Shown here: positions 1,701 through 64,000 of the stretch, piece by piece
Layout of the letters: every line of letters begins with the position of its first letter
How positions within the stretch are numbered: position 1 is the stretch's first letter
Source: an uncultured bacterium
GTDB taxonomy: Bacteria; Patescibacteriota; Minisyncoccia; Phycocordibacterales; UBA9973
Direction: 5' to 3'
Assembly (NCBI GenBank): GCA_903894565.1
Contig: CAITQP010000009.1
Span: forward strand, 8,576-72,575
Length of the DNA stretch: 64,000 bases
The notes under the pieces: model-generated
Database searches by the model: none
Told to the model about the DNA's origin: nothing
What the model saw: the letters and a program-made list of their open reading frames with translations, nothing else
Position numbers and translations under genes: made by a program

Positions 1701-2474
1701 TTAGACAAGAGTCAATATTTCGTACCCTGTGTCGGTAATGAGTACTGTGTGCTCGAAATGGGCGGCTGTTGAGCCGTCAATTGTTTTAAGCGTGTAGCCA
1801 TCCCCTGTCTCGTCAACGTGTTCTGTGCCAAGTGTGAGCATTGGTTCGATAGCGATAATCATTCCTGGGACGAGTGGATCACCTGTGTGCGCCTTTCCAT
1901 AGTTTGGAATATATGGATCCTCATGAATTGCTTTGCCAACACCGTGACCTGCAAGCACTTTGATGATGCCGTATTTACCATGCTTTTTCGCGTATGAGGA
2001 AACAGCAAATCCAATATCACCAACTCGTGCACCCGGTTTTATCGCCTCGATTCCCTCGTACATTGATTGTTCAGTAACGGAGAGAAGTTTCTGTTTTTCT
2101 TTTGTGAGTGTGCCGACGCCAACTGTGACCGCGTGATCAGTAAAAAGTCCTTTGTGATTGAGACCAAGATCAAGCGACACAACATCACCTTCTTTCAATA
2201 TTGTCGTATCTTTTGGAATACCATGCACGACTTCTGCATTCACGGAAACACACAATGCTGCGGGATACGCTTTGCGATGTCCGACTGGCTTATACCCCAA
2301 AAATGCAGGCGTGTCACCAAGTTTTTTGATTTCATTTTGTGCGAAGAGATCGAGCTCAGTCGCTGAAATTCCTGGGCGGACTTGTTTTGCCGTATCAGCA
2401 AGTACTTGGGCAAGTCGTCGTCCTCCTTCGCGGATAATTTCAATTTCTTTCGGTGTTTTGATGATGATTGCCAT
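1701..2474 (-). CDS. map: methionine aminopeptidase type I
   Basis: 257 aa with MetAP metal-ligand regions (DLGLNHKG.., HGVG, IEPM). Position downstream of adk as in conserved clusters. Confidence 0.9.
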   Translation of the reverse strand: MAIIIKTPKEIEIIREGGRRLAQVLADTAKQVRPGISATELDLFAQNEIKKLGDTPAFLGYKPVGHRKAYPAALCVSVNAEVVHGIPKDTTILKEGDVVSLDLGLNHKGLFTDHAVTVGVGTLTKEKQKLLSVTEQSMYEGIEAIKPGARVGDIGFAVSSYAKKHGKYGIIKVLAGHGVGKAIHEDPYIPNYGKAHTGDPLVPGMIIAIEPMLTLGTEHVDETGDGYTLKTIDGSTAAHFEHTVLITDTGYEILTLV

Positions 2475-2477
2475 ATA

Positions 2478-3164
2478 CTATCGAATAACTGTTCCAACAA
2501 ATTCTTTCCCGTCGAGATACGCTGAAAGATTTTCCAAATTCTTACCGTTCATTACTGCAACTTCAAGCCCGAGTTCTTGTGCCATCTTGGCAGCAATCGG
2601 ATCAAACGGAGCATTGAATCCAGGATCCCATGTCTCTGGGAGCAGTTTACGGAAGTCGTCCCACGATGATGCTTTAATCGGAGTTGCGGTCGTATCTTTA
2701 CGTGGGTCCGCGGTGTAAACGTAATCAATATTTGAAAGATTGATTACGTTCTTCGCACCAAGTGATTTTGCGAGTGTTACCGCAGCTCCATCACTCGAGT
2801 GACCAGGTTCATATCCGCCACCAACGAGTACAGACTTGCCGGTGAGTGAAAGCTCCCGCGGGTCGAGGTATATCAGAGGCTCAGCAACATCTCCTATCGC
2901 GAGGCGTAACAATTCGGCATTGTATCGAGTCGTATAAATTCCGAGCCAATCGAGTTCATCATTCGATGGAGTGCGTGCTTTGCGAAGTGCGTCTTGATAT
3001 TCGCGACACAATTTTCCACCACCAGTGATGATCGCAAAGCGCTCCCCTTTTTCTGCGCGCGTACGAATGAGTGTACTAATTGCACTCACATAGTCGCCAT
3101 CAACACGGTCAGGACAAATGAGTGACCCACCGAGAGAAATGACTGTCCAAGAAATATTTTCCAT
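2478..3164 (-). CDS. amino acid kinase family protein, putative archaeal-type uridylate kinase
   Basis: 228 aa with ISLGGSLI and ITGGG glycine-rich motifs typical of the aspartate/glutamate/uridylate kinase fold. Lies between adk and map. Confidence 0.5.
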   Translation of the reverse strand: MENISWTVISLGGSLICPDRVDGDYVSAISTLIRTRAEKGERFAIITGGGKLCREYQDALRKARTPSNDELDWLGIYTTRYNAELLRLAIGDVAEPLIYLDPRELSLTGKSVLVGGGYEPGHSSDGAAVTLAKSLGAKNVINLSNIDYVYTADPRKDTTATPIKASSWDDFRKLLPETWDPGFNAPFDPIAAKMAQELGLEVAVMNGKNLENLSAYLDGKEFVGTVIR

Positions 3165-3167
3165 AAA

Positions 3168-3776
3168 TTAAAAACCGAGCGCCTTTTTGATATCTTCATG
3201 CACAGCCTCGATCGACTGCGCGCCATTGATTGTGTGAAGTGTGTATCCAGACTTGGTCTTGAGTGCCTGCATCGCAGGAATGACGTTCGTCTCATATTCC
3301 CAGAATCTACGATTGATACCTTCGTCGGTATCATCAGAACGTCCGCGAAGCTTCATACGTTTGATGACTTCTTCTTTTGAAACTTCGATATATACGATCT
3401 CAACATTCTCGCGTTTGTAAAAATCCATCGCGCTCGTAAAGGCAGCTTCTTGCTCAAGTGTGCGAGGATATCCGTCGGCGATGAGATGGCAATCCGCTGT
3501 GAGTTCACGGATGAGAATATTCGTAAAGACCCCAATGGTCAAGAAATCAGGCTGAAGCTCACCACGCTCAAGTTTGGCCTTCACGAGGCTGCCTGTATAG
3601 CCATCACCGGCAGTCAATGCGCGGTATTCGTTGCCAGGGTAGGCATACACTATCTTGAGACCATCGCGCTCGGCAAGAAGCTTCTTCAAAAGCTCAACTT
3701 GAGTACCCTTCCCAGCCCCCACAATCCCAAAAAATACATAGGTTTTCGGTGCGTTCATATGGCTCGAATATACCAT
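3168..3776 (-). CDS. adk: adenylate kinase (alternative start at 3758)
   Basis: P-loop GIVGAGKGTQ, LID-region RSDD, overall Adk similarity. Confidence 0.85.
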   Translation of the reverse strand: MVYSSHMNAPKTYVFFGIVGAGKGTQVELLKKLLAERDGLKIVYAYPGNEYRALTAGDGYTGSLVKAKLERGELQPDFLTIGVFTNILIRELTADCHLIADGYPRTLEQEAAFTSAMDFYKRENVEIVYIEVSKEEVIKRMKLRGRSDDTDEGINRRFWEYETNVIPAMQALKTKSGYTLHTINGAQSIEAVHEDIKKALGF

Positions 3777-4296
3777 ATCAAACGAGAAGTTACGAGTGCG
3801 AAAAAGGAGCTCCCTTTTTTCGTTTCGCAGCGATTTTCTTAGGGTCGAGCGTCGGCTGAAATGTGAGCTTTCGGTTCCTTCTACTTATAAATACAAAGCT
3901 TGCCCTCGGTCGTGCGTAAGCCACATATTTATACTATACTTGACAAGGTACCGTAATTACAGGGCTTAGAAGCAATGATGAAAAATGTACTCGTCATAAT
4001 ACTGGGTTTATTATTTTGAATTTAAAATAAATATTTTATGGGGCACGAATCATTTGGGTTTGGTGGAATTGATGCTGTTGTTGGCAAGTCAACAGATATG
4101 GAAAAGAAAGTCCTAGTAGAGAAGCTTGAAAATTTCTTCCACGAAGGAACAGTAAATTCTAATATAGGCAGAGAATATTTGCGATTTGAGGTTGGTAAAA
4201 CACCCGAAGATTTGAAAATCATCGAAAAAGCAAATACTTCCACAAGTAAGTATAGGAGCCGGTTTAGACAGGATTTTTTTACCGTCCCTGAAAAAA

Positions 4297-10969: not shown

Positions 10970-11806
10970 CTACTCCTCGATGTGAGTTCTCACGAGTGAG
11001 TACAAACAAGCCTCAATACCAAAAGCCTGCCCAATATCGTGCGCAAATTGTCGAACATAAAATCCGCTCGAAACAGTAAGCTCAACTTTGACCGTGAGTA
11101 ACTCATCAGGTAGGTCTCGGGCACACTGTGTCCACGTCTCAAGAATTTCGGCTTGACGAAAATCACCCTGAACAATACTCGTGAGTTTTTGGACTCGATC
11201 AAGTACTTCAGCTCGAGTGCGTGAGCCGACCGTGAGGTCGGTGTATGAAATGAGCTCCACATCATGTTTCGGCAAAAGAACCTCATTCCCCGCCCGCGCA
11301 TGCGTATGAAGCTGAATACCATCTACCGTCTTTGAAGAATATGCTGGATACTGTTGTTGGAATTTACCGATCATTTTTTTAAGAAATGCTTCAACGTGCG
11401 CAGAAATTTCCAAACATTCTTTTGAAAAGGCAACTCGTCGCGCGTGCTCGCGCGCGAGCTTCTCGGCGCCAAGCGCCTGCGAAAGGCCTTCTTCAAAAGA
11501 ATGTTTGGAAATTTCTGCGCAGGTAGAAGGAATACCCAACAAATCATATGTATCAGTTGATACACTAAAAATAATTTCGGCTACATACGTTTTAGAGAGT
11601 CCGCTGTAAGCGTCTTTGTTTTTACATTCCTCACCCACGAGGATAATCAGTTCACCTTCCGCGGCTGGGTCAAGTCGCCCCGCATACGTCATCGGAACAC
11701 TCGCATCAATCCCTTCGCTCGCGCGGAGTCGCTCCAAACAAACAAGCGGGGTTTCTCCCCACTCTTTGTATACGCGATATACGTTTTTTATACCTTCGCT
11801 TGCCAC
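10970..11806 (-). CDS. truB: tRNA pseudouridine(55) synthase TruB carrying an in-frame 41-aa insertion encoded by a palindromic repeat element
   Basis: MTYAGRLDPAAEGELIILVGE...KTYVAEI.FSVSTDTYDLLG and MIGKFQQQYPAYSSKTVDGIQLH match the TruB GxLDP and GxIxQxPPxYSAxK motifs. The frame is continuous through the 123-bp repeat at 11398-11520. Confidence 0.7.
   Translation of the reverse strand: MASEGIKNVYRVYKEWGETPLVCLERLRASEGIDASVPMTYAGRLDPAAEGELIILVGEECKNKDAYSGLSKTYVAEIIFSVSTDTYDLLGIPSTCAEISKHSFEEGLSQALGAEKLAREHARRVAFSKECLEISAHVEAFLKKMIGKFQQQYPAYSSKTVDGIQLHTHARAGNEVLLPKHDVELISYTDLTVGSRTRAEVLDRVQKLTSIVQGDFRQAEILETWTQCARDLPDELLTVKVELTVSSGFYVRQFAHDIGQAFGIEACLYSLVRTHIEE
11398..11520. repeat. structured repeat element, family 1, copy 1 (inside the truB coding sequence, in frame)
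   Basis: 80-bp core ttttgaaaaggcaactcgtcgcgcgtgctcgcgcgcgagcttctcggcgccaagcgcctgcgaaaggccttcttcaaaag is flanked by a perfect 22-bp inverted repeat gcgcagaaatttccaaacattc / gaatgtttggaaatttctgcgc. Length 123 = 41 codons. Confidence 0.7.
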
Positions 11807-12366
11807 GCCGTGTACGCCTCCAGAATCATTTGCTCAACTGTCGGAATATCATTCACTTTTGTATCAATCACCAAATCAAAATGGCTCGGGTCCTGGTAAT
11901 TTTCAATGGCGTAATATTTGTTGTAACGTTCTTTCTCACTCGCAAGTCGCTCAGAAAGTCGTGTCTTCACGTCGATGAGTGTCTCTGACATTTCCTCCTT
12001 GCGTTCAGATTTCTTGGCTTGAATATCGCCGAACACACGAGCACCCGCCGTATCCAAATCAAGATTCAAAAATACTTTGAATGAATCAGGTGCGAAAAAC
12101 CATCCAATACGTGAATCAATCACAAAATTGTTATTGCTATCCATGAAGGCTTTTTGCTTGGCATCGATTTCACGATCAACCGCTGGGTCATTTTCTGCAA
12201 GGAGGTTGAGTTCAACGATAGTCAGCCCACGCTCACTCGCCATCGCACGCATGAAGTCCCCAGCCGAGTAGTGCGGATAGCCGAGCGCTGTGGCCACACG
12301 CTTGGCAGCGGTTGATTTGCCTGAACCGAGCATGCCACAGATGGTGATGATGTTGCGCTTTTGCAT
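11788..12366 (-). CDS. cmk: cytidylate kinase-like nucleoside monophosphate kinase (P-loop)
   Basis: ITICGMLGSGKST Walker A and overall CMP-kinase-like layout. Start chosen at MQKRNIITICG. Confidence 0.5.
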   Translation of the reverse strand: MQKRNIITICGMLGSGKSTAAKRVATALGYPHYSAGDFMRAMASERGLTIVELNLLAENDPAVDREIDAKQKAFMDSNNNFVIDSRIGWFFAPDSFKVFLNLDLDTAGARVFGDIQAKKSERKEEMSETLIDVKTRLSERLASEKERYNKYYAIENYQDPSHFDLVIDTKVNDIPTVEQMILEAYTAWQAKV

Positions 12367-12446
12367 AGGCGAAGAATAGCACGACTCGAGCAAAATAAAA
12401 AATAACCACCCAATCCTGAGTAGTTATTTTCTATTATTATTTATAT

Positions 12447-13013
12447 TTAATCTACGGAGAGACTGTTCTCAGTAGCAAATAGCTGTAGTTGGAAAAGGCC
12501 AACTTCCTCAATACCAAACCTGACAAAGATATCGAGCAGCAGTAGTAACTGTTGGCAATATTTTCGTTCTTTAGGGTCCTTTTTGGTCTCTTTCTCAGCC
12601 ACAATCTTTGAACGAATGATCTCACCCTCCTCGACAATCCATTTTTTAAAGTTATCTTCAATTTTTTTCACATACCAATCAACCAACTGTTGATTGGGCT
12701 TAAGTGACCTTTTCAGCATCACTATTTTATGGGGATAAAATCCCCCGAGGTCCATCTCCCTTTTTATCGTCAAGAATAGAACGAAGACAAACTCGTCTAT
12801 TGACCTTTTTTGCAGTAGGGTCAATTTCTTTTTGCAAAAAAGGTACTCCGCGAATATCTCGCGGTTTATTGATGTTAGCCAGGTAATCCTTTTGTGTAAA
12901 CCTGGAAGACCAATCCCTAGGTCCTGCTTCTCAAACAGATACCTTTGAAAAAAATACCGAGCCAAAAAAAATACGGCGGGTAGAACTAAGAAAATCAATG
13001 CTAGTTTGCTCAT
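12447..13013 (-). CDS. hypothetical membrane-anchored protein (AT-rich)
   Basis: ORF track entry. Start chosen at MSKLALIFLVLPAVFF, an N-terminal TM segment. Composition clearly lower GC than the ribosomal neighbours. Confidence 0.45.
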   Translation of the reverse strand: MSKLALIFLVLPAVFFLARYFFQRYLFEKQDLGIGLPGLHKRITWLTSINREIFAEYLFCKKKLTLLQKRSIDEFVFVLFLTIKREMDLGGFYPHKIVMLKRSLKPNQQLVDWYVKKIEDNFKKWIVEEGEIIRSKIVAEKETKKDPKERKYCQQLLLLLDIFVRFGIEEVGLFQLQLFATENSLSVD

Positions 13014-13121
13014 GTGAACAATTGTTTTGTTGTGTGAAATTTTATTTACACTACAACATATCCACATATATAACAAGAGCCACACGTGAGTGTGGCTCTT
13101 GTTATATACTATGAAAATTGA

Positions 13122-13682
13122 TTATTTCTTCTTCTTTACATCCTCTTCCTTTTTGAAAGGAACACCGATGAGTTCGAAGAATGCGAGACCTTCTGCCTTT
13201 GTCTTTGCACTCGAGACGATTGTGACAGAGAGACCGAAGACATCCTTGATATCTTCATCTGCAGTTTCAGGGAAGATTGTGTGTTCCTTGATACCGAGTG
13301 TGAGGTTACCGATCGAGTCAACAGCTGAAGGATTGAATCCACGGAAGTCCTTCGTGCGAGGGACTGCAATGTTGAAAAACTTTTCAAGAAATCCGTACAT
13401 GCGAGGACCGCGGAGTGTTACAGAAACACCGACTGGGTCGCCCTGACGAATCTTGAATGTTGCGATTGATTGCTTTGCACCACGGAGTGCAGTCTTCTGT
13501 CCGGTGATCTTGGTCAAACGGTCAGCAACGAGATCGTTGTGATTCTTGTTACGCTTCATTGCGTTTCCAGTTCCGGAACCAACAACAACCTTCTGGAGCT
13601 TTGGAGCTCCCATGACGTTCTTGTAGCCAAACTTTGGCTTCAAAACTTCGTATGATTTTTGTGCTTTTTCTTTTACAGTCAT
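13122..13682 (-). CDS. rplE: 50S ribosomal protein L5
   Basis: MTVKEKAQKSYEVLKPKF start and L5 signature regions. Trimmed from ORF 13122..13745. Confidence 0.9.
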   Translation of the reverse strand: MTVKEKAQKSYEVLKPKFGYKNVMGAPKLQKVVVGSGTGNAMKRNKNHNDLVADRLTKITGQKTALRGAKQSIATFKIRQGDPVGVSVTLRGPRMYGFLEKFFNIAVPRTKDFRGFNPSAVDSIGNLTLGIKEHTIFPETADEDIKDVFGLSVTIVSSAKTKAEGLAFFELIGVPFKKEEDVKKKK

Positions 13683-55150: not shown

Positions 55151-55173
55151 CAAAAAATAAAAAACGCCCCGTT

Positions 55174-55572
55174 ATGGAATTAAAAAATTGGCACAATCTC
55201 GCCCCAAAGCTCCCTCGTCAACGCATCATGATAGAGGGCCTCACAGATCGTCTCTATACGGAAGATGATATCAAGGATTTTATGAGTAAACTCACCGAAA
55301 TCGTTGGCATGCGTCCACTGGAAAAGCCGTTCGCTTATCCAGCCCTCAAAATGGGATATGGTGGCTGGCAACATTGGGTGACATCAGGTGTACATGTATA
55401 CACGTATCCTGCGATAACGACTGGTTCAAGTAGTGTCACAGGCAAAGCCGACCAATGTCTCGTCTCAGTTGATGCGTATACTTGTAAGCCGTTCGACAAC
55501 GAGAAAGCAGTGGCTTTCACAAAAGAATACTTCAAGTGTACAGAAATCGTATGGCAAGAAGTTCGAGTGTAA
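55174..55572 (+). CDS. S-adenosylmethionine decarboxylase-like (class 1b AdoMetDC fold) protein
   Basis: SGVHVYTYP and VSVDAYTCKP resemble the ESHISIHTWPE and AVDVFTCG motifs of small prokaryotic AdoMetDC. The pyruvoyl ES dipeptide is replaced by TS. Confidence 0.35.
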   Translation: MELKNWHNLAPKLPRQRIMIEGLTDRLYTEDDIKDFMSKLTEIVGMRPLEKPFAYPALKMGYGGWQHWVTSGVHVYTYPAITTGSSSVTGKADQCLVSVDAYTCKPFDNEKAVAFTKEYFKCTEIVWQEVRV

Positions 55573-55590
55573 TCGGTGCGACTCAATATT

Positions 55591-55627
55591 AAAAATGGCA
55601 GACCTTAAGTAGGGGTCTGCCATTTTT
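55591..55627. terminator. bidirectional rho-independent terminator
   Basis: aaaaatggcagacc-ttaagtagg-ggtctgccattttt. Confidence 0.65.
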
Positions 55628-55630
55628 CAC

Positions 55631-57334
55631 TTACACAAACTCCTGCTGATAACAACTCACACAGTAGACTATTTCTGGTCCCTCTGGATTATATGCAGTC
55701 TGTATGTCAGTTCCACATTTTGCACAATGACGATCCCATAATTTCGGTGAATTCATTCGCTTAAAGCGTCGATTCTCACGACATTTCAAACACAATCGTG
55801 GAAGCGGAAGATTCATTTTTAACAACAAATCATATTCCATTTTTGCAATTCGATATGCACGGCCACATTCAATACAGCCAATCGCTTCTTTCAAAATAGT
55901 CTCGTCGACTTCTTTGATCGTCTGCGGGAGCAATTCCCCGTCAATTGAATTCGCAACAACCGGAGCGATTGCGTCACTCCACGTATACCCTTCGGCGAGT
56001 GCCTGCTCTTTCGTCTTTGGGAAGAACCGCATTGCATTTGATTTATTGTACGGAAAGTTACTAAACTCAAGCGGGAAAAATTCTCCATACGGAAATGTTC
56101 GCCCGAGTGCGTCAACGTACGGTCGAACCTTCATGTCCTCAATAATCTGCGCACGTAGTATTTCAAATGCTTCTTTTGTATATTCTTTATTCAAAATGCA
56201 GTGTTGTTTGCGTTTCAAATTTGCACAACCAAAATTATTCTTCCCTGCTGTGTTCCAAATACAATACTGCAAATTCATAACATCCGGCCAGCATTCGAGT
56301 GCAAACATAACAGAGTTCGCATTCTCGCCAACGGTCACAGCCTCATATATCTCTGTGGCGTTATTTCCCCATCCAGAATAATCTCGACAGTCCTTCGCCG
56401 AATGTACTGTGATGAACTCAACCCATTTACAATCCTCGGCGCCATTTGCAATATACATTTCGTGAGAATTCTTTGATTCATATACATATTCTCCTGATAC
56501 GTTCACATTAAGCGGACTCCCGTGATATGCACGATACGACTCGGTCAAAAAAAATACGTCTGCTTTTTTTTGGAGAGCATCAATACCCGAACGAGTATCG
56601 AGGCGCATCTCGGCTGCTCGAGCGATATACTCTTCATGACTATATTTCACATTAAAAATACAATTTGATTCTCCGCGCAAATTTGCACAACCGATACAAT
56701 TCGTACAGTTATAGCAATTGCGCGAGAACCATACGTCAACACAGTTATCGCATTCTTCGGAATAAAATGTTCGATAACATTTTTCAAAACCGATTGATTC
56801 ATAACACAATTCTGACTCGAATCCGCGAATGCAGTCGGCACTATTTTTAAGTGTGTTGAGAAGAGATGAATTATATACGTTTTCACAAAAGTCCGCCCAA
56901 AAAACAAACGAGCAATCTTTACTCCAAGCAAGCGCGTTCGAGTAATCTGAGTTTTTTAAACTGGTATACAAACTCGTAAGCGCAGAATATGGTGTCTTTC
57001 GAGCAAGCTCCTTGAGCTGATCCAAAAATGGTCGCGCCGGATCGTAATCCATCGCGTACTCAGTGCCGTCCCAGTCATCCTTCCACCAGCATGGCTGACA
57101 ATACACGGTGAGCTCTTGCTCTGGAGAGTACAAGGATAACGTTCGATTGCCACACTTGTCACAATTGCGCCAGTGAAGATTCCACGTATTTTGAAACGAA
57201 AACCTTCGCACTCGGCGACATTCCGAACACCACGAAGGATGAGGGACTCGTATTTTTTTATAATAATGAGCATCCTCTTCCGTGATTTCAAATTCGTGAT
57301 TACAATTTTGGCACAATTTTGTTTCCATAATCAA
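55631..57334 (-). CDS. Cys-rich multi-zinc-ribbon protein, paralog 1 (unknown family)
   Basis: 567 aa, about 40 Cys. Double CxxC zinc ribbons at both termini. Duplicated central CYNCTNCIGC..NLRG...YSKEEY module. About 45-50% identical to the ORFs at 57381..59078 and 60976..62721. Confidence 0.7.
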   Translation of the reverse strand: MIMETKLCQNCNHEFEITEEDAHYYKKIRVPHPSWCSECRRVRRFSFQNTWNLHWRNCDKCGNRTLSLYSPEQELTVYCQPCWWKDDWDGTEYAMDYDPARPFLDQLKELARKTPYSALTSLYTSLKNSDYSNALAWSKDCSFVFWADFCENVYNSSLLNTLKNSADCIRGFESELCYESIGFEKCYRTFYSEECDNCVDVWFSRNCYNCTNCIGCANLRGESNCIFNVKYSHEEYIARAAEMRLDTRSGIDALQKKADVFFLTESYRAYHGSPLNVNVSGEYVYESKNSHEMYIANGAEDCKWVEFITVHSAKDCRDYSGWGNNATEIYEAVTVGENANSVMFALECWPDVMNLQYCIWNTAGKNNFGCANLKRKQHCILNKEYTKEAFEILRAQIIEDMKVRPYVDALGRTFPYGEFFPLEFSNFPYNKSNAMRFFPKTKEQALAEGYTWSDAIAPVVANSIDGELLPQTIKEVDETILKEAIGCIECGRAYRIAKMEYDLLLKMNLPLPRLCLKCRENRRFKRMNSPKLWDRHCAKCGTDIQTAYNPEGPEIVYCVSCYQQEFV

Positions 57335-57380
57335 TACTCATAGTATGCCATATATGGGCACAAGATAGAAAAATCCTTGG

Positions 57381-59078
57381 CTAAACGAATTCTTGCTGGT
57401 AACAACTCACGCAATACACGGTCTCTGTACCCTCCGGAGAAAACGCGGTCTTGATTGGTCCTGAACATTTCGCACAACTTCTGTCCCAGAGCTCGGGTGG
57501 GTTCAACCGCTCAAAACGGGCATTCTGGCGACAAGACGGGCATGTGTGAGGTAACGGCAACTGCATTTTTTGAAGAAGTGCAAGCTCAAGTTGTCCGATC
57601 TTATAACCACGTCCACATTCTACGCAACCAATAATCTCACGTAAAACTGAGTCATCGATACCAGCCACTGTTTCTGGAAGATCTTTTGATAGAAGCGTCA
57701 CAGAATGCTGCACCGGCTCATCGTCATACCAACTATATCCTTCAGAGAGAGCCTGTTCTTTCGTCTTCGAAGCATACTTACTCCCTGAACATTCGTTATA
57801 TCCAAAGTGACTCATCATAAGAGGAAAGGACTCGCCGTATGTCCATGTTCTTCCCAGCTCATCAACATAAGGATTTTTCTTCATATCAGCAATTATTTCT
57901 CCACGCAATTTCTCATATTCTTCCTTTGAATATTCCTTATTTAAAATGCAATATTTTTTGCGTTTCAAATTCACACAACCAAAATTTTGTTTACCAGAAA
58001 TCACCCACCATGAATATTCAACATCGAGACAATCAGTGTACGTACAATAGGAAAACCGAATATTTGCGACATTTTCTCCAGTAGAATGTGACTCGTATAT
58101 TCGCTCAGCACCCGCACCCCAACCTGAATAGTCATAACATTCTTTCGCTGAGGGGACAGTGATGAACTGACAATACCGAGAATCTTCGGCGCTTGTACAA
58201 AGATACATATCTTCGGAATTTTTTGATTCAAAAATATATTCCCCAGTAACATTCAAATTCATTGAATTTCCCGTATATTCACGATATGGCAGTGTGTGCC
58301 AAAATTCATTGATTGATGATTTCATTGCCTCGATTCCCGAGTGTGTATCAAAGCCAAATTCAGCAAGTTTCTGCATATATTCATCTTTTGAATACTGTAC
58401 ATTAAAAATCATATATGAAGCTCCTCGTACATTCACGCAACCAATACAGTTGGTACAATTGTAACAATTACGTGAAAACCAAACATCCGTGCAAGCATCG
58501 CATTCCTCTGAATAAAATGTTCGGTAACATTTGTTGATGCCGATAGATTCTGAACAAAGCTGGGATTCACGTGCACGAAGACAATCGGTCGAATCTTTCA
58601 ATTCAAGAATGACTGACGAATTAGAAACATTTTCAGAATAATCTGCCCAAAATGTTAGGTAGCAATTACGCAAATACGATGCTCCATTACAAAATTCAGA
58701 ATTAACCATTGTCGGCGCAAGAACTTCTTGTGCCACCCACGGTGTCTTCCGTGAGAGCTCATAGACCTGTTCAAAGAAGTTTCGAGTCGGATCGTATTCC
58801 ATTCCGTATTCAGTTCCATCCCACTCATCACTCCACCAGCAATCGTTACAATACACCTCGATTGGAACAGTTTTGTTGTACATGGAAAGTGTGCGCTTTT
58901 CGCATTTTGCACAATTCCGCCAGTATACACTCCACACATTATGTGTAGACATGCGGCGCTCGAAGCGACATTTCGAACACCATGTGGGATGCGGAACATC
59001 AATCTTTTTATAGTAATTTTGGTCGCGTTCATCGATGACGAAATCAAGGTGGCAATTTTGACAGTTTTTTGTTTCCAT
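57381..59078 (-). CDS. Cys-rich multi-zinc-ribbon protein, paralog 2
   Basis: 565 aa, same architecture, tandem to paralog 1. Confidence 0.7.
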   Translation of the reverse strand: METKNCQNCHLDFVIDERDQNYYKKIDVPHPTWCSKCRFERRMSTHNVWSVYWRNCAKCEKRTLSMYNKTVPIEVYCNDCWWSDEWDGTEYGMEYDPTRNFFEQVYELSRKTPWVAQEVLAPTMVNSEFCNGASYLRNCYLTFWADYSENVSNSSVILELKDSTDCLRARESQLCSESIGINKCYRTFYSEECDACTDVWFSRNCYNCTNCIGCVNVRGASYMIFNVQYSKDEYMQKLAEFGFDTHSGIEAMKSSINEFWHTLPYREYTGNSMNLNVTGEYIFESKNSEDMYLCTSAEDSRYCQFITVPSAKECYDYSGWGAGAERIYESHSTGENVANIRFSYCTYTDCLDVEYSWWVISGKQNFGCVNLKRKKYCILNKEYSKEEYEKLRGEIIADMKKNPYVDELGRTWTYGESFPLMMSHFGYNECSGSKYASKTKEQALSEGYSWYDDEPVQHSVTLLSKDLPETVAGIDDSVLREIIGCVECGRGYKIGQLELALLQKMQLPLPHTCPSCRQNARFERLNPPELWDRSCAKCSGPIKTAFSPEGTETVYCVSCYQQEFV

Positions 59079-59222
59079 ATAATTTAAGTATTTGTATTAT
59101 CTCACACGCGCCTCCTAATGAAAATCAAACCCAGTACTACCCGCCGACTCCGTGCACATGTACCACACAACCACAAACAAAATCATTGGAATGATAATCA
59201 TATATTGCTATTAGCTATTATT

Positions 59223-59292
59223 TCTCACAATTAATCCGCAAGTGACTCTTGTGAACTAAAAAGTGAGGGCTATAAATTGGTTTATAGATAGC
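59223..59292 (-). promoter_or_regulatory. conserved leader/promoter motif shared with 62737-62786 (hairpin plus ttaattgtgaga(a)ataat)
   Basis: ctcacaattaatccgcaagtgactcttgtgaactaaaaagtgagggct here versus ctcacaattaacccgcgagcgacactcgtggactaaatagtgggctc upstream of paralog 3. The stem change caag/cttg versus cgag/ctcg is compensatory. Confidence 0.5.
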
Positions 59293-59300
59293 CCATGTAA

Positions 59301-60059
59301 TCACAGCAACTCACGCAATTGTTCGGGAGTGAACGGGAGCTGCAAGTGTTGCTCCTGTAAGTCCTTCGGTTTTGTAAAACCGAACCGAATCAATTTTTGA
59401 CCAGGGAGAAGCGAGCGCTTCAAATCTCCATAACGTCGCTCAGTTTGAGCCCACCGCTCAGCACTTACCCCAGACTCGACAAGACACACAATGTATGAGG
59501 GCATTACTATTGAGATAATCCGAAAAGCGTCGCTATGCACAACACTAATGCTGTCATACCCCTCAATCGGACCCAACATGTGTTTCTCTTCGACAAAAAC
59601 AATTTTTGTCGAATCTAGTTTTGACACTCGTTCGAATGCACAACCAAGACCCAGCAATTCCGCAACCGATTTCTTCCAATCTTTTCGATCAAGAGAAAAA
59701 GGAATACGTCCATACTTATACTTCTGGTGAGTCGCGAGCATTCGTATCGGAGCTTCTACATATGCACAATAGTGGTGATCCACATCAGTACACACTGAAA
59801 CTGGGATATTGTACTCAACACACTGAGCGACCATGCTCAACCCGTTTGGCTTGTCTGCATCATGATCGTTTAAGTTCATCGACGGATAATGCATATCCGT
59901 TACAACTCCAACGAGCTGATCTTTGAGTTCCTGTAACAGGCGAAGTCCATCAGCCAAATTGTGAGCAATTACCGGGAAGCAACCGGAAGAAAGTACTGCC
60001 TCTTGGGCCAGTTTTGCTTGATCGAGCTTATCCTCGATTACTAACATTATTCTGTTCAT
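59301..60059 (-). CDS. receiver (REC, CheY-like) domain protein with unknown C-terminal domain
   Basis: N-terminus MLVIEDKLDQAKLAQEAVLSSGCFPVIA...VGVVTDMHYP carries an acidic pair and phospho-acceptor-like Asp. 252 aa. Confidence 0.45.
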   Translation of the reverse strand: MNRIMLVIEDKLDQAKLAQEAVLSSGCFPVIAHNLADGLRLLQELKDQLVGVVTDMHYPSMNLNDHDADKPNGLSMVAQCVEYNIPVSVCTDVDHHYCAYVEAPIRMLATHQKYKYGRIPFSLDRKDWKKSVAELLGLGCAFERVSKLDSTKIVFVEEKHMLGPIEGYDSISVVHSDAFRIISIVMPSYIVCLVESGVSAERWAQTERRYGDLKRSLLPGQKLIRFGFTKPKDLQEQHLQLPFTPEQLRELL

Positions 60060-60187
60060 AACGAATTAATTTATGCATATAATAAAATGATTTGAGAGTA
60101 ACGTCAAAATACTCTACATTCTGATTCTAAAATACCCTTTATTTATAAAGCTTATTTTAAACATGTGATATTATTTCGTCAAAATTC

Positions 60188-60217
60188 TTGACATAAATAT
60201 AGCCCAAAAGGTATACT
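60188..60217 (+). promoter_or_regulatory. sigma70-like promoter (TTGACA-18-TATACT) placing the TSS at or next to the TrmB ATG (leaderless)
   Basis: ttgaca at 60188-60193 and tatact at 60212-60217. ATG at 60224. Confidence 0.45.
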
Positions 60218-60223
60218 TTTGAC

Positions 60224-60979
60224 ATGCCCATAGAGCTCACAACCATCCTCGAAAAAACCGGTCTCTCCAAGAAGCAGGCCGACGTATACCTCGCTCTCCT
60301 TGAGCTTGGTGAGGCATCAATGACAGAAATTTCGAAGCGTGCGAACCAGAAGCGCCCTACCACCTACCTCATCGTCGAAGAACTCGAGCTCGTTGGTCTC
60401 GCCTCGTCCGTCAAAAAGGGTAAGAAAAAAATCTATATGCCTGCACATCCTCGTCGTCTCGCCGAACTGACAAAGTTTCGTATGGACCAAGTCGGCGACG
60501 TAATGCCAGAACTCCTTGCTCGTTACAAATCGGAATCAACCAAACCAAAGATTGAAATGTTTGAAGGTATCGAAGGCGTTCGTAAGGCATACCGTGAAGC
60601 ATTTAGTTTACTTTCTGAACACAAGGAAGGCCTCTGGATCAGCGACATTGAACGTGTGCTCGAAAAATTTCCCGAAGTCCTCAAAGAATACGACAAACTT
60701 GTACGAAGTATTCGCGACCCACGCATTCGTGAAATCACATTTGGCGGAGGGCCGGCTCGCGCATGGGTAGAACACATGCAAAAGGATCACAGCAAATACT
60801 GCAAAGTAAAGTATATGGGCGATCGTGGCCACATCGGTGCTCTCGATCAGCTCATCGTCGGAAACAAGGTCATGAGCTTCTCGCTCAACAAAGATATTTT
60901 TGTCCTCATTACAGAAAGCGAAGCACTAGCAGAAACTCAGCGTGGACTCTTCGAACTTTTGTGGAATCAAAAAAACTAA
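60224..60979 (+). CDS. TrmB-family transcriptional regulator
   Basis: N-terminal winged HTH LGLSKKQADVYLALLELGEASMTEISKRANQKRPTTYLIVEELELVGL typical of TrmB. 251 aa. Confidence 0.65.
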   Translation: MPIELTTILEKTGLSKKQADVYLALLELGEASMTEISKRANQKRPTTYLIVEELELVGLASSVKKGKKKIYMPAHPRRLAELTKFRMDQVGDVMPELLARYKSESTKPKIEMFEGIEGVRKAYREAFSLLSEHKEGLWISDIERVLEKFPEVLKEYDKLVRSIRDPRIREITFGGGPARAWVEHMQKDHSKYCKVKYMGDRGHIGALDQLIVGNKVMSFSLNKDIFVLITESEALAETQRGLFELLWNQKN

Positions 60980-62721
60980 ATCACTTCTGCTTGATAACAT
61001 GCTTCGCAATACACAAGCTCAGCACGATCCGGTGAATATGCAGTCTCAAATTGATTCAAGCACTTTCCTTCGTGATGAGGGTGGCTATTCTCACACATAC
61101 ATGCACGGTGCCAAAGCTTGTTTGGGTTACGATCAACTACGCGCATGTAGTGACGGCAGTTCGGACAAAGTCTTGGAAGTGGCAAACTATGAGCGCGATA
61201 AAACTGTAATTCCTGTGCTGTGACACGGAATGCGGTAGCGCACTGATCATTACATTCCCCTTTATGAGCACAGCCTATAATCGCAGATACAATATCGTCA
61301 TCTATTTCCAGAATATCATCCGGTAATTCTTCCGGAGAATGTGTGATTTCATAATTTTTAATTTTTCGATTTTTCCATGGAAAACCGTTTCCTTCAGCAA
61401 AATCTTTTGTTATCGGGAAAAATTCTTGAGCTGAGGTTTCATTGTACGCAAATTGTGAGATTTCAATCGGCATAAAATCTCCGTAGGAGTATCCCCTCTC
61501 CTTCGAGTCGATATAAGGCATCATTTTCATCTGTTCTATTATTTTTGGGATCAGTTCATCGTATTCCTCTTTTGAATATTGCTTGTTCAAAATACAATAC
61601 TGTTTACCCCGAAGGCCGACACATCCGAAACAATTGTTATTATTGTTGAATAAGTACAAACAATATCGTAACGCCCGTGCTTCGATAGAATTCACACAAC
61701 CAATAATGTCACTAATATTTTTCCCACATGTTAATGATTCATAGACGCGTTCGGTATTTTCACCAAATTGAGTAAAATCATAGCACTCTTTATTCCCCTT
61801 AATTATGAGCCACATGCAATACTTACAATACTCAGACTCATTCACGATAAACGAATTGTCGGAAAATTTTGAGTTGTAAATATAATCGCCAGTTGAATTC
61901 AGATTTTGTAAACCGTGCATATATTTATGCGGAAACTGTAACCAGAAATCTCGAACCTGTTTTTTCATGTCAGCCACGAATGAATGCGAGCCAAGGTTAA
62001 ATTCTTTTATTTTTTCCGCATACTCATCTTTACTAAACTGCTCGTTGAAAATACAGTATGACTGATTACGCAAATTGATACACCCGAAACAACTCGAGCA
62101 TCCTGAAAGATTTTTTGAGAACCATGTATTATGTGAACTCTCGCAGTCGACAGAATAATATATCTCATAACACTTATTACAATTCAAACTTTCATACCCC
62201 ATCTGTGTACCCTCAATCATTGTCACATCGACTGAATCACGTGAACGCTCAACTTCTTCTCCATACATACACGACTCGTTATAATCAGAATTAAAAAGAT
62301 AATAACAATTTTTCAATGCATGGTTCATGTTTGTAAAACTACTATTCTCAAGTGTTTTGTAGCTAACAGCAAGATGCTGATACGGAACTTTTTTTATAAG
62401 CTCTGCGAGTTGGGAAAAAAATGATTTTGAAAAATCATATTCCTTTCCGTATGTCGTCGCGTCCCATTTATCGCTCCACCAGCACTCACCACAATAACTC
62501 GTAATCCCTGCTTCTGGATCGTACATCGAAATCGTACTCACACCACACATATCGCATGGTCTCTTATAAAGAGAGCGTTCATTACGAAATGAAAGACGAC
62601 GTTGCAATCGACAATCGGGACAAAACGTTGGCGCTGGCACATTCATTTTTCCGTAAAAATCAAAGTCAGTAGATGTAACAACAAAATCATTTTTGCAGTT
62701 TTGGCACACTCGTGTCTCCAT
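60976..62721 (-). CDS. Cys-rich multi-zinc-ribbon protein, paralog 3
   Basis: 581 aa with the same CxxC-terminal ribbons and central Cys modules. Its stop overlaps the stop of the convergent TrmB gene by 4 nt. Confidence 0.7.
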   Translation of the reverse strand: METRVCQNCKNDFVVTSTDFDFYGKMNVPAPTFCPDCRLQRRLSFRNERSLYKRPCDMCGVSTISMYDPEAGITSYCGECWWSDKWDATTYGKEYDFSKSFFSQLAELIKKVPYQHLAVSYKTLENSSFTNMNHALKNCYYLFNSDYNESCMYGEEVERSRDSVDVTMIEGTQMGYESLNCNKCYEIYYSVDCESSHNTWFSKNLSGCSSCFGCINLRNQSYCIFNEQFSKDEYAEKIKEFNLGSHSFVADMKKQVRDFWLQFPHKYMHGLQNLNSTGDYIYNSKFSDNSFIVNESEYCKYCMWLIIKGNKECYDFTQFGENTERVYESLTCGKNISDIIGCVNSIEARALRYCLYLFNNNNNCFGCVGLRGKQYCILNKQYSKEEYDELIPKIIEQMKMMPYIDSKERGYSYGDFMPIEISQFAYNETSAQEFFPITKDFAEGNGFPWKNRKIKNYEITHSPEELPDDILEIDDDIVSAIIGCAHKGECNDQCATAFRVTAQELQFYRAHSLPLPRLCPNCRHYMRVVDRNPNKLWHRACMCENSHPHHEGKCLNQFETAYSPDRAELVYCEACYQAEVI

Positions 62722-62736
62722 ATATTTTTTGATTAT

Positions 62737-62786
62737 CTCACAATTAACCCGCGAGCGACACTCGTGGACTAAATAGTGGGCTCATC
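62737..62786 (-). promoter_or_regulatory. conserved leader/promoter motif, copy upstream of paralog 3
   Basis: See 59223-59292. Contains the hairpin ggctcatc-ggaaat-gatgagcc and a TGaGATAAT extended -10-like element 14 nt before the ATG. Confidence 0.5.
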
Positions 62787-63187
62787 ATTTCCGATGAGCC
62801 AACCACCACAAAAGATTATACTTTCGGAGCAGCCATAATATACATGTCCCAGTTATTACAAATACCATCGCCAAACTATATCTATAAACTGCATCAAGCC
62901 ACCAAAATAGTTCACTGGCCAGTAGATGGCAGAGTAGGACCGTCATTATTTGATCGAAAATCTTATCAAAAATGGGCTTCCATAATTTACGAGGATTGGC
63001 AGAAAAATTATGGACATAGATCAATAACAGCAAGAATAAATTTATCTTCACCGAATGCACACTTGGACACAAGGACTTTGTCGCAATAACACAGTGTATT
63101 GTTGGTGCTAAATATCCTGTAGAAAGTACAACAAGGCCAAGCTCTACCAAAATGAGAATAAATACTAATGGATGACGTTTTTCCATG
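62785..63187 (-). CDS. small polytopic membrane protein (start chosen at MEKRHPLVFILIL)
   Basis: C-terminal 134 aa of ORF 62785..63666. The upstream part of that ORF is antisense to the TrmB paralog and is rejected. Confidence 0.3.
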
Positions 63188-63328
63188 TTACATATTTTGA
63201 ATGTGAAATTATTTCCTACATTATCCAACGGTTTGCTTTTTCTGTCATATTTGTCAACAAATTCTTTATATATGGACAAAAAACCATATTTTATATAGTA
63301 TAAATGTTGTAGGATTTTCCAACAGATT

Positions 63329-64000
63329 ATGCGAAACGACCAAAAAATCATCGATTCTCTCACAGACTTCGGTCTCGAGAAAAACGAGGCGACTGTGTAT
63401 CTCGCTTCTCTTTCGCTCGGCCCGACCACAATACTAAAGCTTGCGAACCAGTCTGGCGTGAACCGCACGACTGTATACGAGATCGTCGAGGCGCTTGAAC
63501 ACAAAGGACTCATGAAAAAAGAGATCCATGGCTTAAAAACACTCTTCTCCCCCGAGCATCCCGACCGCCTCGAGAATACACTCTCTCGAAAACGCGAGGC
63601 GCTTACGAAACTTCTCCCAGAGCTTGAGAGCAAATACCACCTAAAAGGTTCTGGAAGTACAATCAAGTATTACGAGGGACTCTCCGCCATCAAAAATCTT
63701 TACGGCGATCTTGCACACGAACTCAAACCAACTGATTTCTACTATGTCGTTTCAAACACAGCCGAATGGGAAGCAATCGATGACAACTATTTTCGCAAAG
63801 AGCACGTGGAAATTTTTTCGCAAAAACGTGTCGATCGACGAGTACTCTTTGTCGATTCACCTGAGGCACAAGCACGCAAAAAATATGAGCGTAATTTCAA
63901 CGAAGTCGTAAAGATACTCCCGCCTGACTCAAACATCCACGTCGACCTCTGCATCACACCGTACAAGCTTGTTATCTTTCAACTTCATCAACCGCTTGTC
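63329..64000 (+). CDS. TrmB-family transcriptional regulator, paralog, 3' end outside window
   Basis: MRNDQKIIDSLTDFGLEKNEATVYLASLSLGPTTILKLANQSGVNRTTVYEIVEALEHKGL wHTH. Frame open to the window end. Confidence 0.6.
   Translation, partial: MRNDQKIIDSLTDFGLEKNEATVYLASLSLGPTTILKLANQSGVNRTTVYEIVEALEHKGLMKKEIHGLKTLFSPEHPDRLENTLSRKREALTKLLPELESKYHLKGSGSTIKYYEGLSAIKNLYGDLAHELKPTDFYYVVSNTAEWEAIDDNYFRKEHVEIFSQKRVDRRVLFVDSPEAQARKKYERNFNEVVKILPPDSNIHVDLCITPYKLVIFQLHQPLV

Follow-up and report, generated by a model that had tools for sequence, protein, structure and literature searches.

Three minus-strand genes, P1, P2 and P3, lie near the end of the 64,000-nucleotide stretch analysed here (the window; contig CAITQP010000009.1 of assembly GCA_903894565.1, from an uncultured bacterium of the Patescibacteriota) and encode homologous cysteine-rich proteins. 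The explanation that accounts best for the evidence overall, and to which about even confidence can be given, is that these proteins are ancient, soluble paralogs of ~565 amino acids (aa), each built as a Cys-lined solenoid capped by zinc fingers and predicted to serve as a recognition scaffold. Profile comparisons and a structural model show a predicted architecture of two homologous, narrow beta-solenoids and an alpha/beta insert, likewise conserved, all capped by two homologous pairs of Cys4 fingers. The 16 terminal Cys most likely form, by analogy with related zinc-binding domains, four Cys4 sites with structural zinc. The other ~20 Cys, placed at every third residue, are shown by their periodicity, their substitution pattern and the fold matches to be predicted packing residues that face inward and line the solenoid core, rather than Fe-S or zinc ligands. 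Judged by sequence, the whole protein belongs to no described family and combines known zinc fingers with a predicted beta-solenoid.

All three open reading frames (ORFs) proposed in an initial annotation of the window were confirmed on the minus strand. P1 shares 55% identity with P2 and 39-40% with P3, far above chance, and the three proteins score 668-767 bits against the family hidden Markov model (HMM), which detects no further copy in the window. P1 had been listed as 55631..57334, starting at a TTG; translation from an ATG at 57328 yields METK..., matching P2 and P3, and the likely gene is therefore 55631..57328 (565 aa). The layout described earlier also stands, with P2 and P1 in tandem across a gap of ~50 bp, P3 at a distance of 1.9 kb, and P3 converging with the regulator gene TrmB1 (4-bp overlap). 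The Cys counts of P1, P2 and P3 are 34, 35 and 36, where about 40 each had been given. A signal peptide had been reported absent, and neither a signal peptide nor any hydrophobic segment was found in P1-P3 (maximum KD19 <1), which is consistent with a soluble protein.

Matches to Pfam and NCBIfam are confined to the termini, residues ~100-480 matching no model, and profile searches of Pfam and the PDB returned no whole-protein match to a characterised family, in agreement with the earlier failure to assign these proteins to one. The model at the N-terminus is zf_Tbcl (PF13451), those at the C-terminus are zf_Tbcl_2 (PF23477) and TIGR04272 (CxxC-x17-CxxC), and at E<0.01 zf_Tbcl_2 matches 40 and zf_Tbcl 24 of 49 family members. 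The C-terminus of P1 belongs to PF23477 (31.4 bits, cutoff 27), P2 scores just under that cutoff (24.0 bits) and P3 does not match; PF13451 reaches 20.2 bits in P2 and 22.8 bits in P3 at the N-terminal finger, both below its cutoff of 24, and all TIGR04272 scores are under the cutoff of 36. The likeness noticed earlier between the two terminal CxxC pairs was upheld when profiles of the sub-alignments were compared: the N-terminal pair (residues 1-80) is homologous to the C-terminal pair (480-562) with an hhalign probability of 99.4% and E 3.8e-21. Both termini carry the CxxC...CxxC-R-x2-R-R signature of zf_Tbcl, zf_Tbcl_2 and TIGR04272. However, these domains are known from small proteins in which the finger stands alone or is repeated, whereas here two pairs of fingers enclose a ~400-aa core without a match to any model.

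The conservation of the four fingers (ZnF1 to ZnF4, counted from the N-terminus) was followed in an alignment of 136 diverse homologues with 31-55% identity to P2. The Cys of ZnF1 and ZnF4 are kept at 95-100%, whereas about half of the family members have lost ZnF2, and about one-fifth ZnF3, each time as a whole four-Cys unit. Since they are either almost always kept or lost unit by unit, the terminal Cys behave as real, structural Cys4 metal sites, and this part of the earlier proposal of metal binding was retained. Small proteins of Methanosarcina that contain the CxxC-x17-CxxC domain have been shown to bind zinc by inductively coupled plasma mass spectrometry (PMC12704099), and because of this result zinc is the metal predicted for the fingers of P1-P3. 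The finger-helix arginines R38, R42, R517 and R521 are invariant or nearly so. The family profile also finds a weak match in the PDB between the C-terminal finger pair and the LIM domains of CRP1/CRP2 (E 0.002). LIM domains are likewise tandem zinc modules for macromolecular recognition, but the match is marginal and Cys-driven, and the ligands of the family are all Cys, with a spacing unlike the LIM consensus.

The internal duplication of the central region, suggested by its repeated motifs in the initial annotation, was verified by profile-profile comparison (residues 169-241 vs 321-395, hhalign probability 98.2%, E 4.6e-14). Each of the two modules, A and B, is closed by a conserved cap, G-C-x-N-L-[RK]...Y-C-I-[LF]-N..Y-S-K-E-E-Y, followed by a helix; module A contains a CYNCTNCIGC coil (C205, C208, C211, C214) and a GCVNxR...N cap, module B ends with FGCVNLKRKKYCILNKEYSKEEY and a capping helix, and the alpha/beta insert that follows has the family consensus YGEFFP..SPF.YNET.AQ..FP...G..W. 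Conservation is even across all domains of the family protein. The central Cys keep a strict period of 3, with 1001 pairs at spacing 3 vs 231 expected; spacings of 3, 6, 9 and 12 are enriched ~3- to 4-fold over shuffled sequences, with ~4-fold for 3, 9 and 12, and spacings of 1-2 are depleted ~10-fold. Unlike the Cys of ZnF1 and ZnF4, the central Cys are swapped one at a time and independently for S/V/I/L/A, module B is without most of the Cys of module A despite their homology, and the number of Cys per family protein ranges from 21 to 47. The co-variation of Cys expected of ligand sets or of cross-coil disulfides was not found in the core, where associations are weak, mostly at spacing 9, with none at spacing 6. 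A disulfide ladder was dropped as a general feature of the core in view of these weak associations and the lack of any at spacing 6, and internal metal sites were dropped as a general feature in view of the weak co-variation.

An AF2 model of P2 computed from the diverse alignment (pLDDT 91.9, pTM 0.91) has short strands that recur every 6 residues in each central module, as at residues 351-378, with a helix after each module. In the column profile a unit of ~12 residues, [KE]-[ND]-C-x-Y, recurs at C139, C151, C163, C175, C196 and C208. The coil of the Tenebrio antifreeze protein has 12 residues, every third of which points inward, and the register of the ~12-residue unit resembles it. The fold matches are the ryegrass ice-binding protein, the curli protein CsgA, phi29 gp12, the antifreeze proteins of Tenebrio and the spruce budworm, YadA-type/UspA1 adhesin heads and LbH acyltransferases; Foldseek of a first model against the PDB gave no match, and searches of PDB sequences with P2 (phmmer) and the family profile gave only a noise match and the marginal LIM-domain match. 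In the model the central Cys map to beta-solenoid coils. The period-3 Cys, their single substitutions, the lack of co-variation and the solenoid coils of a pLDDT-92 model together argue against the earlier view of the central C-x2-C-x2-C-x2-C strings as zinc-ribbon or Fe-S sites. The closest known folds for the centre of the family are the antifreeze beta-solenoids (TmAFP 1ezg, budworm 1m8n, ryegrass IBP 3ult), at 6-10% identity. Nevertheless, the TmAFP pattern (TCTxSxxCxxAx, a Thr-x-Thr ladder and intra-coil disulfides) is absent: instead of the Thr-x-Thr ice-binding ladder the family has ladder Cys flanked by Asn/Asp and Tyr, and it is bacterial, predicted to be cytoplasmic and without a sign of disulfides.

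Module A also weakly matches a phage protein family of unassigned function, phrog_15341 (E 2e-6 for P1, residues 119-236, nt 56621-56974; 14 of 49 members match). A tblastn search for phage relatives in 50,697 phage genomes gave no match, and a search of IMG/VR gave a single partial match, at a contig end.

The family is large. A word-indexed search returned 2,971 relatives, the best 120 of which all match over the full length, with an identity of 54% or more, and are named only 'hypothetical', and an exhaustive profile search returned 4,709 clusters at 50% identity with E<=1e-3, and 1,892 with E<=1e-30, those listed being nearly all 550-600 aa long. On one-genome-per-species contigs at least 566 family loci were found. 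The best 80 of them are nearly all labelled Patescibacteria, with titles that name mostly Nomurabacteria/Paceibacterota and, in a few cases, Liptonbacteria, Kaiserbacteria, Jorgensenbacteria and Brennerbacteria; many bear the generic titles 'Saccharibacteria' or 'uncultured bacterium'. Among the records found the family is confined to Patescibacteria, and its named members all fall in Parcubacteria-type groups. A 277-kb contig labelled Burkholderiales (L048, JAMPXW010000001.1) has the arrangement RluA-family protein-rplS that is typical of Paceibacteria, and is probably mis-binned or mislabelled. The closest genome is GCA_037143195.1, where P2 is 95% identical. A literature search on the domain names and on Cys-rich or zinc-ribbon families of Patescibacteria found no paper on the family. 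Orthologues are 55-70% identical over their full length, which is very high for a Patescibacteria protein, the paralogs within an array are 30-57% identical, and for 117 of 126 members the closest match lies in a different genome; the low identity within arrays and the best matches elsewhere imply that the paralogs are ancient. The core orthogroup, which includes P1 and P2, comprises 69 of 172 sequences, and the group of P3 is small. Too few positions passed in a comparison of the orthogroups for specificity-determining residues.

Gene context was compared across 85 loci (labelled L), taken with about +/-8 kb each. They hold 192 family ORFs, and 47 of them have two or more, including tightly packed co-directional arrays of up to 9-10 full-length paralogs (L083, L079 and L076). 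Near gap-free arrays of 7-9 or more paralogs occupy L083:807-16744, L079:3-15291 and L076:6052-17689, so that in a small genome one locus can give at least 16 kb to this family. At more than 20 loci the core orthogroup is preceded by the gene of an RluA-type pseudouridine synthase and followed directly by rplS (L19), all co-directional (e.g., L003:9285-12206, L024, L026, L044, L049 and L059), and where extra paralogs occur the rplS-adjacent copy always belongs to the core orthogroup. One representative, P0254 (L088:8001-10196), is fused to an N-terminal GNAT acetyltransferase domain and comes last in a co-directional series of genes, after those of IscS, MnmA, a radical-SAM enzyme like MiaB, RNase III and the GTPase Der. 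In 16 of the 85 loci a pair of VirD4-like P-loop ATPases (~500 aa and 660-810 aa, without a membrane segment) brackets or abuts family genes or arrays; L017, L030, L036, L045, L051, L058, L066, L081, L083 and L084 are among these, the ATPases of L084 lying at 2031-3896 and 11369-13233 around four family genes. The ATPases match TrwB_AAD_bind, T4SS-DNA_transf and TraG-D_C in Pfam. Mur ligase genes neighbour the family in 4 loci. The neighbourhood first noted, a REC protein with TrmB regulators, is not conserved as a unit; what recurs is the rplS/RluA and the VirD4-like ATPase neighbours.

Taken as a recognition scaffold, the protein would be cytoplasmic and would, as a rigid, zinc-stapled structure, bind a macromolecular partner. 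The partner would most likely be a nucleic acid or nucleoprotein, a preference that follows from the near-invariant finger-helix Arg, the rplS/RluA synteny of the core orthogroup, the RNA-modification and ribosome-biogenesis context of the GNAT fusion, and the DNA-translocase type of the other recurrent neighbour. Different old paralogs may have specialised for different partners. In the window the genes would be transcribed as two units, orphan-P2-P1 and small ORF-P3. Each unit has a TrmB-like regulator of its own, divergently oriented, which is probably its controller.

Several points weigh against this proposal, the weakest step of which is the putative role as a scaffold for a macromolecular partner. 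P1-P3 are acidic (pI 5.0-5.5), which is unusual in general nucleic-acid binders, and the rplS/RluA synteny comes from one clade. The small genomes of Patescibacteria are rich in translation genes, so that adjacency to rplS and RluA is weak evidence. The equally recurrent pair of VirD4-like ATPases points elsewhere. The inward orientation of the central Cys derives from periodicity, substitutions and fold matches and not from model coordinates. In 57% of homologues, P1 and P2 among them, no Cys is missing from the coil C205/C208/C211/C214, which may form a fifth metal site in a subset; the predicted thiol-lined interior of the solenoid could conceivably hold metal in vivo. The zinc in the fingers of P1-P3 is itself extrapolated from conservation and from the Methanosarcina proteins (PMC12704099).

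Among the rival explanations, which we rank as ATPase partner or substrate, enzyme, exported adhesin or effector and, last, Fe-S or redox system, the first holds that the family works with orphan soluble VirD4/TraG-like ATPases of the FtsK-HerA superfamily as adaptors, regulators or translocase substrates, P1-P3 being detached members of an ATPase module. This is the strongest of the rivals and still an unlikely one. It draws on the two ATPase types at 16 of the 85 loci, where gene junctions are short or overlapping, on their Pfam matches, and on the observation that Patescibacteria genomes carry ~2 VirD4-like genes each, most of which lie at a distance from virB4 and may have been 'exapted for other functions' (PMC12102498). 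However, the window holds no such ATPase, the association is absent in the RluA-rplS clade, the ATPase loci are phylogenetically non-independent, and the Pfam matches are weak in one example (E ~1e-6, with 1e-15 in other copies). It could be suggested further, with slightly more reserve, that the ancient, differentiated paralogs of the family and the about two orphan soluble VirD4-like ATPases that most Patescibacteria carry away from their type IV secretion genes make up an unrecognised machine specific to Paceibacteria, which would process nucleic acid that is imported or comes from the host, or pass the family proteins to the host.

Less probable is an enzyme on a beta-helix platform, e.g., an LbH-like acyl or group transferase acting on RNA, protein or cell-wall precursors, a doubtful reading to which the full-length conservation among orthologues, the one GNAT fusion and the Mur ligase neighbours lend some credit. 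The family has no match to Hexapep or to any other enzyme HMM, and lacks the PF00132 pattern ([LIV]-[GAED]-x2-[STAV]-x, period 6); its periodicity is 3/12 and not the 6/18 of hexapeptide repeats, its conserved polar residues are mostly Asn/Asp/Tyr at ladder and cap positions, and neither a conserved His nor a set of residues suggestive of catalysis was identified. It also differs from LbH hexapeptide acyltransferases and gamma-carbonic anhydrases in that no catalytic His/metal triad could be recognised.

It is very unlikely that the proteins are exported, adhesin- or effector-like Cys-rich solenoids that leave the cell by a non-Sec route, are disulfide-bonded outside and interact with a host, even though the best fold matches (antifreeze proteins, CsgA, YadA/UspA1 heads, phi29 gp12) are extracellular, multi-copy tandem arrays adjoin VirD4-like ATPases, and the solenoid module of 14 of 49 members weakly matches phrog_15341. 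Cys4 treble-clef fingers with an invariant Arg are typical of intracellular proteins, and P1-P3 have no signal peptide or hydrophobic segment; the paralogs show great age and strong conservation instead of fast evolution, the (i,i+6) co-variation of Cys that obligate disulfides would predict is absent, and the ATPases have no membrane anchors. Least probable of all is a redox or nucleic-acid system rich in metal, whether Fe-S or multiple zinc, with cluster-binding central modules and a REC and TrmB signalling circuit, which is largely excluded by the conservation data: although CxxCxxCxxC resembles ferredoxin motifs, P3 residues 179-215 faintly match the ferredoxin-type subunit NF045763 (E 0.01, 16 bits, cutoff 150), the coil 205-214 is intact in more than half of homologues and TrmB genes flank the family in the window's clade, no Fer4, radical-SAM or other Fe-S HMM matches, the central Cys are singly replaced by Leu/Val/Ser/Ala with most of those of module A missing from module B, the putative ligand sets do not co-vary, the REC-like orphan protein has neither an HMM match to support it nor the conserved Lys, and TrmB occurs in only 9 of 85 loci.

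A family so large and conserved, without a name, a family model, a solved relative or a literature, marks a clear gap in the cell biology of the candidate phyla radiation. Some of the very small genomes of Paceibacteria still devote at least 16 kb of one locus to arrays of 1.7-kb paralogs, which have been kept for very long, and the core copy remains 55-70% identical across a fast-evolving group. CxxCxxCxxC strings that belong to a predicted solenoid core and not to Fe-S sites matter for the automated annotation of Cys-rich proteins of anaerobes, and the recurrent link to VirD4-like ATPases, which is new, offers a testable lead on two unexplained gene sets of Patescibacteria.

Features of the P1-P3 locus, in window coordinates or residues of P2
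Feature	Position	Strand	Description
P1	55631..57328	-	565 aa from ATG at 57328; 668 bits to family HMM; core orthogroup F17
P2	57381..59078	-	565 aa; core orthogroup; protein used for the AF2 model
P3	60976..62721	-	581 aa; 767 bits to family HMM; different, small orthogroup
N-terminal zinc-finger pair, P2 residues 1-84	58827..59078	-	ZnF1 and ZnF2 (predicted)
ZnF1 (P2)	C6, C9, C34, C37		zf_Tbcl type
ZnF2 (P2)	C56, C59, C77, C80		CxxC-x17-CxxC type
Module A, P2 residues 113-230	58389..58742	-	predicted beta-solenoid, ~12-residue coils, Cys/Ser/Val every third residue
Module B, P2 residues 266-384	57927..58283	-	predicted beta-solenoid homologous to module A
Capping helix and conserved alpha/beta insert, P2 residues 385-480	57639..57926	-	
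C-terminal zinc-finger pair, P2 residues 481-565	57384..57638	-	ZnF3 and ZnF4 (predicted); homologous to N-terminal pair
ZnF3 (P2)	C485, C488, C513, C516		
ZnF4 (P2)	C535, C538, C556, C559		
Orphan protein, 252 aa	59301..60059	-	first gene of putative operon orphan-P2-P1; receiver-like by motif register only
Divergent intergenic region 1	60060..60223	.	between orphan and TrmB1
TrmB1, TrmB-like HTH regulator, 251 aa	60224..60979	+	divergent from orphan-P2-P1, converges on P3
Small hydrophobic ORF, 133 aa	62785..63186	-	upstream of P3; gene status uncertain
Divergent intergenic region 2	63187..63328	.	between small ORF/P3 and TrmB2; minus-strand promoter-like match 63248-63220
TrmB2, TrmB-like HTH regulator	63329..64000	+	truncated by the window edge, with at least 223 aa visible; 32% identical to TrmB1

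The 252-aa protein encoded upstream of P2 had been described as a CheY-like protein with a REC domain, a claim that has no HMM support. It matches nothing in Pfam or NCBIfam at E<=1 and nothing in the PDB, and it has 2 homologues in 5.8 billion sequences. Its hhalign comparison with CheY is not significant (probability 1.3%), E9-D10 and D55 standing in register with D12-D13 and D57; by eye T91 aligns with T87, and the position of the conserved Lys is Ala. A receiver of the PF00072 type was rejected for want of an HMM match and of a significant CheY alignment. A conserved signalling system of REC, TrmB and family proteins was abandoned as an idea, since this protein has so few homologues and TrmB-like genes, often divergent, lie near the family in 9 of the 85 loci, all from the clade of the window.

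The two TrmB regulators of the initial annotation are genuine members of PF01978 (52 and 51 bits vs a cutoff of 25.6; E 6e-14 and 1e-13). They share this winged-helix domain with known TrmB regulators but score far under the cutoffs of the NCBIfam equivalogs TrmB, TrmBL1 and TrmBL2, so that a sugar-sensing function cannot be assumed. The end of the locus had been placed at 63666, which belongs to a spurious 293-aa ORF (62785-63666, minus strand) whose upstream half overlaps the start of TrmB2 on the opposite strand. Only its last 133 codons (62785-63186) are plausible, and the small membrane protein proposed there survives as a hydrophobic ORF; it has no counterpart in the sister genome, which makes its status as a gene uncertain.

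The best four sigma-70-like consensus matches of the 55-64 kb interval all lie in the two divergent intergenic regions, three between TrmB1 and the orphan (plus strand 60188-60217, 11/12; minus strand 60182-60154 and 60107-60079) and one between the small ORF and TrmB2. A 15-nt inverted repeat is found at 60128-60159. No operator common to the two regions was found, only unrelated AT-rich inverted repeats, and an Rfam scan of 55-64 kb gave no match. The sister genome has 86% DNA identity across 55170-60972, a block that comprises an AdoMetDC-like gene, P1, P2, the orphan and TrmB1. In the same genome TrmB2 and P3 are jointly replaced by a pair that is 43%/46% identical in aa sequence (window 60976-64000 vs L001:3717-8011), and a further two genes, for proteins of 255 aa and 60 aa, stand between the replacement paralog and TrmB1. 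From sequence alone, TrmB2-P3 looks like a cassette of regulator and target that is swapped together, and in view of this joint replacement and of the promoter-like matches in the divergent regions the link between TrmB and the family looks functional within the window's lineage.

In a scan with the PADLOC defence models P1 and P2 had no match, P3 had a marginal match to Csx20 (E 0.004), and TrmB1 matched through its HTH only. Positions 56001-64000 have the lowest G+C of the window (0.40-0.42 vs 0.43-0.51 over most of the remainder) and its most sustained run of negative GC skew, which could be a matter of coding-strand and amino-acid bias or of foreign origin. Finally, a 132-aa gene at 55174-55572 (plus strand), which converges on P1, belongs to the S-adenosylmethionine decarboxylase family PF02675 (32.8 bits vs a cutoff of 25), and this AdoMetDC-like gene adjoins the paralogs in the sister genome too.

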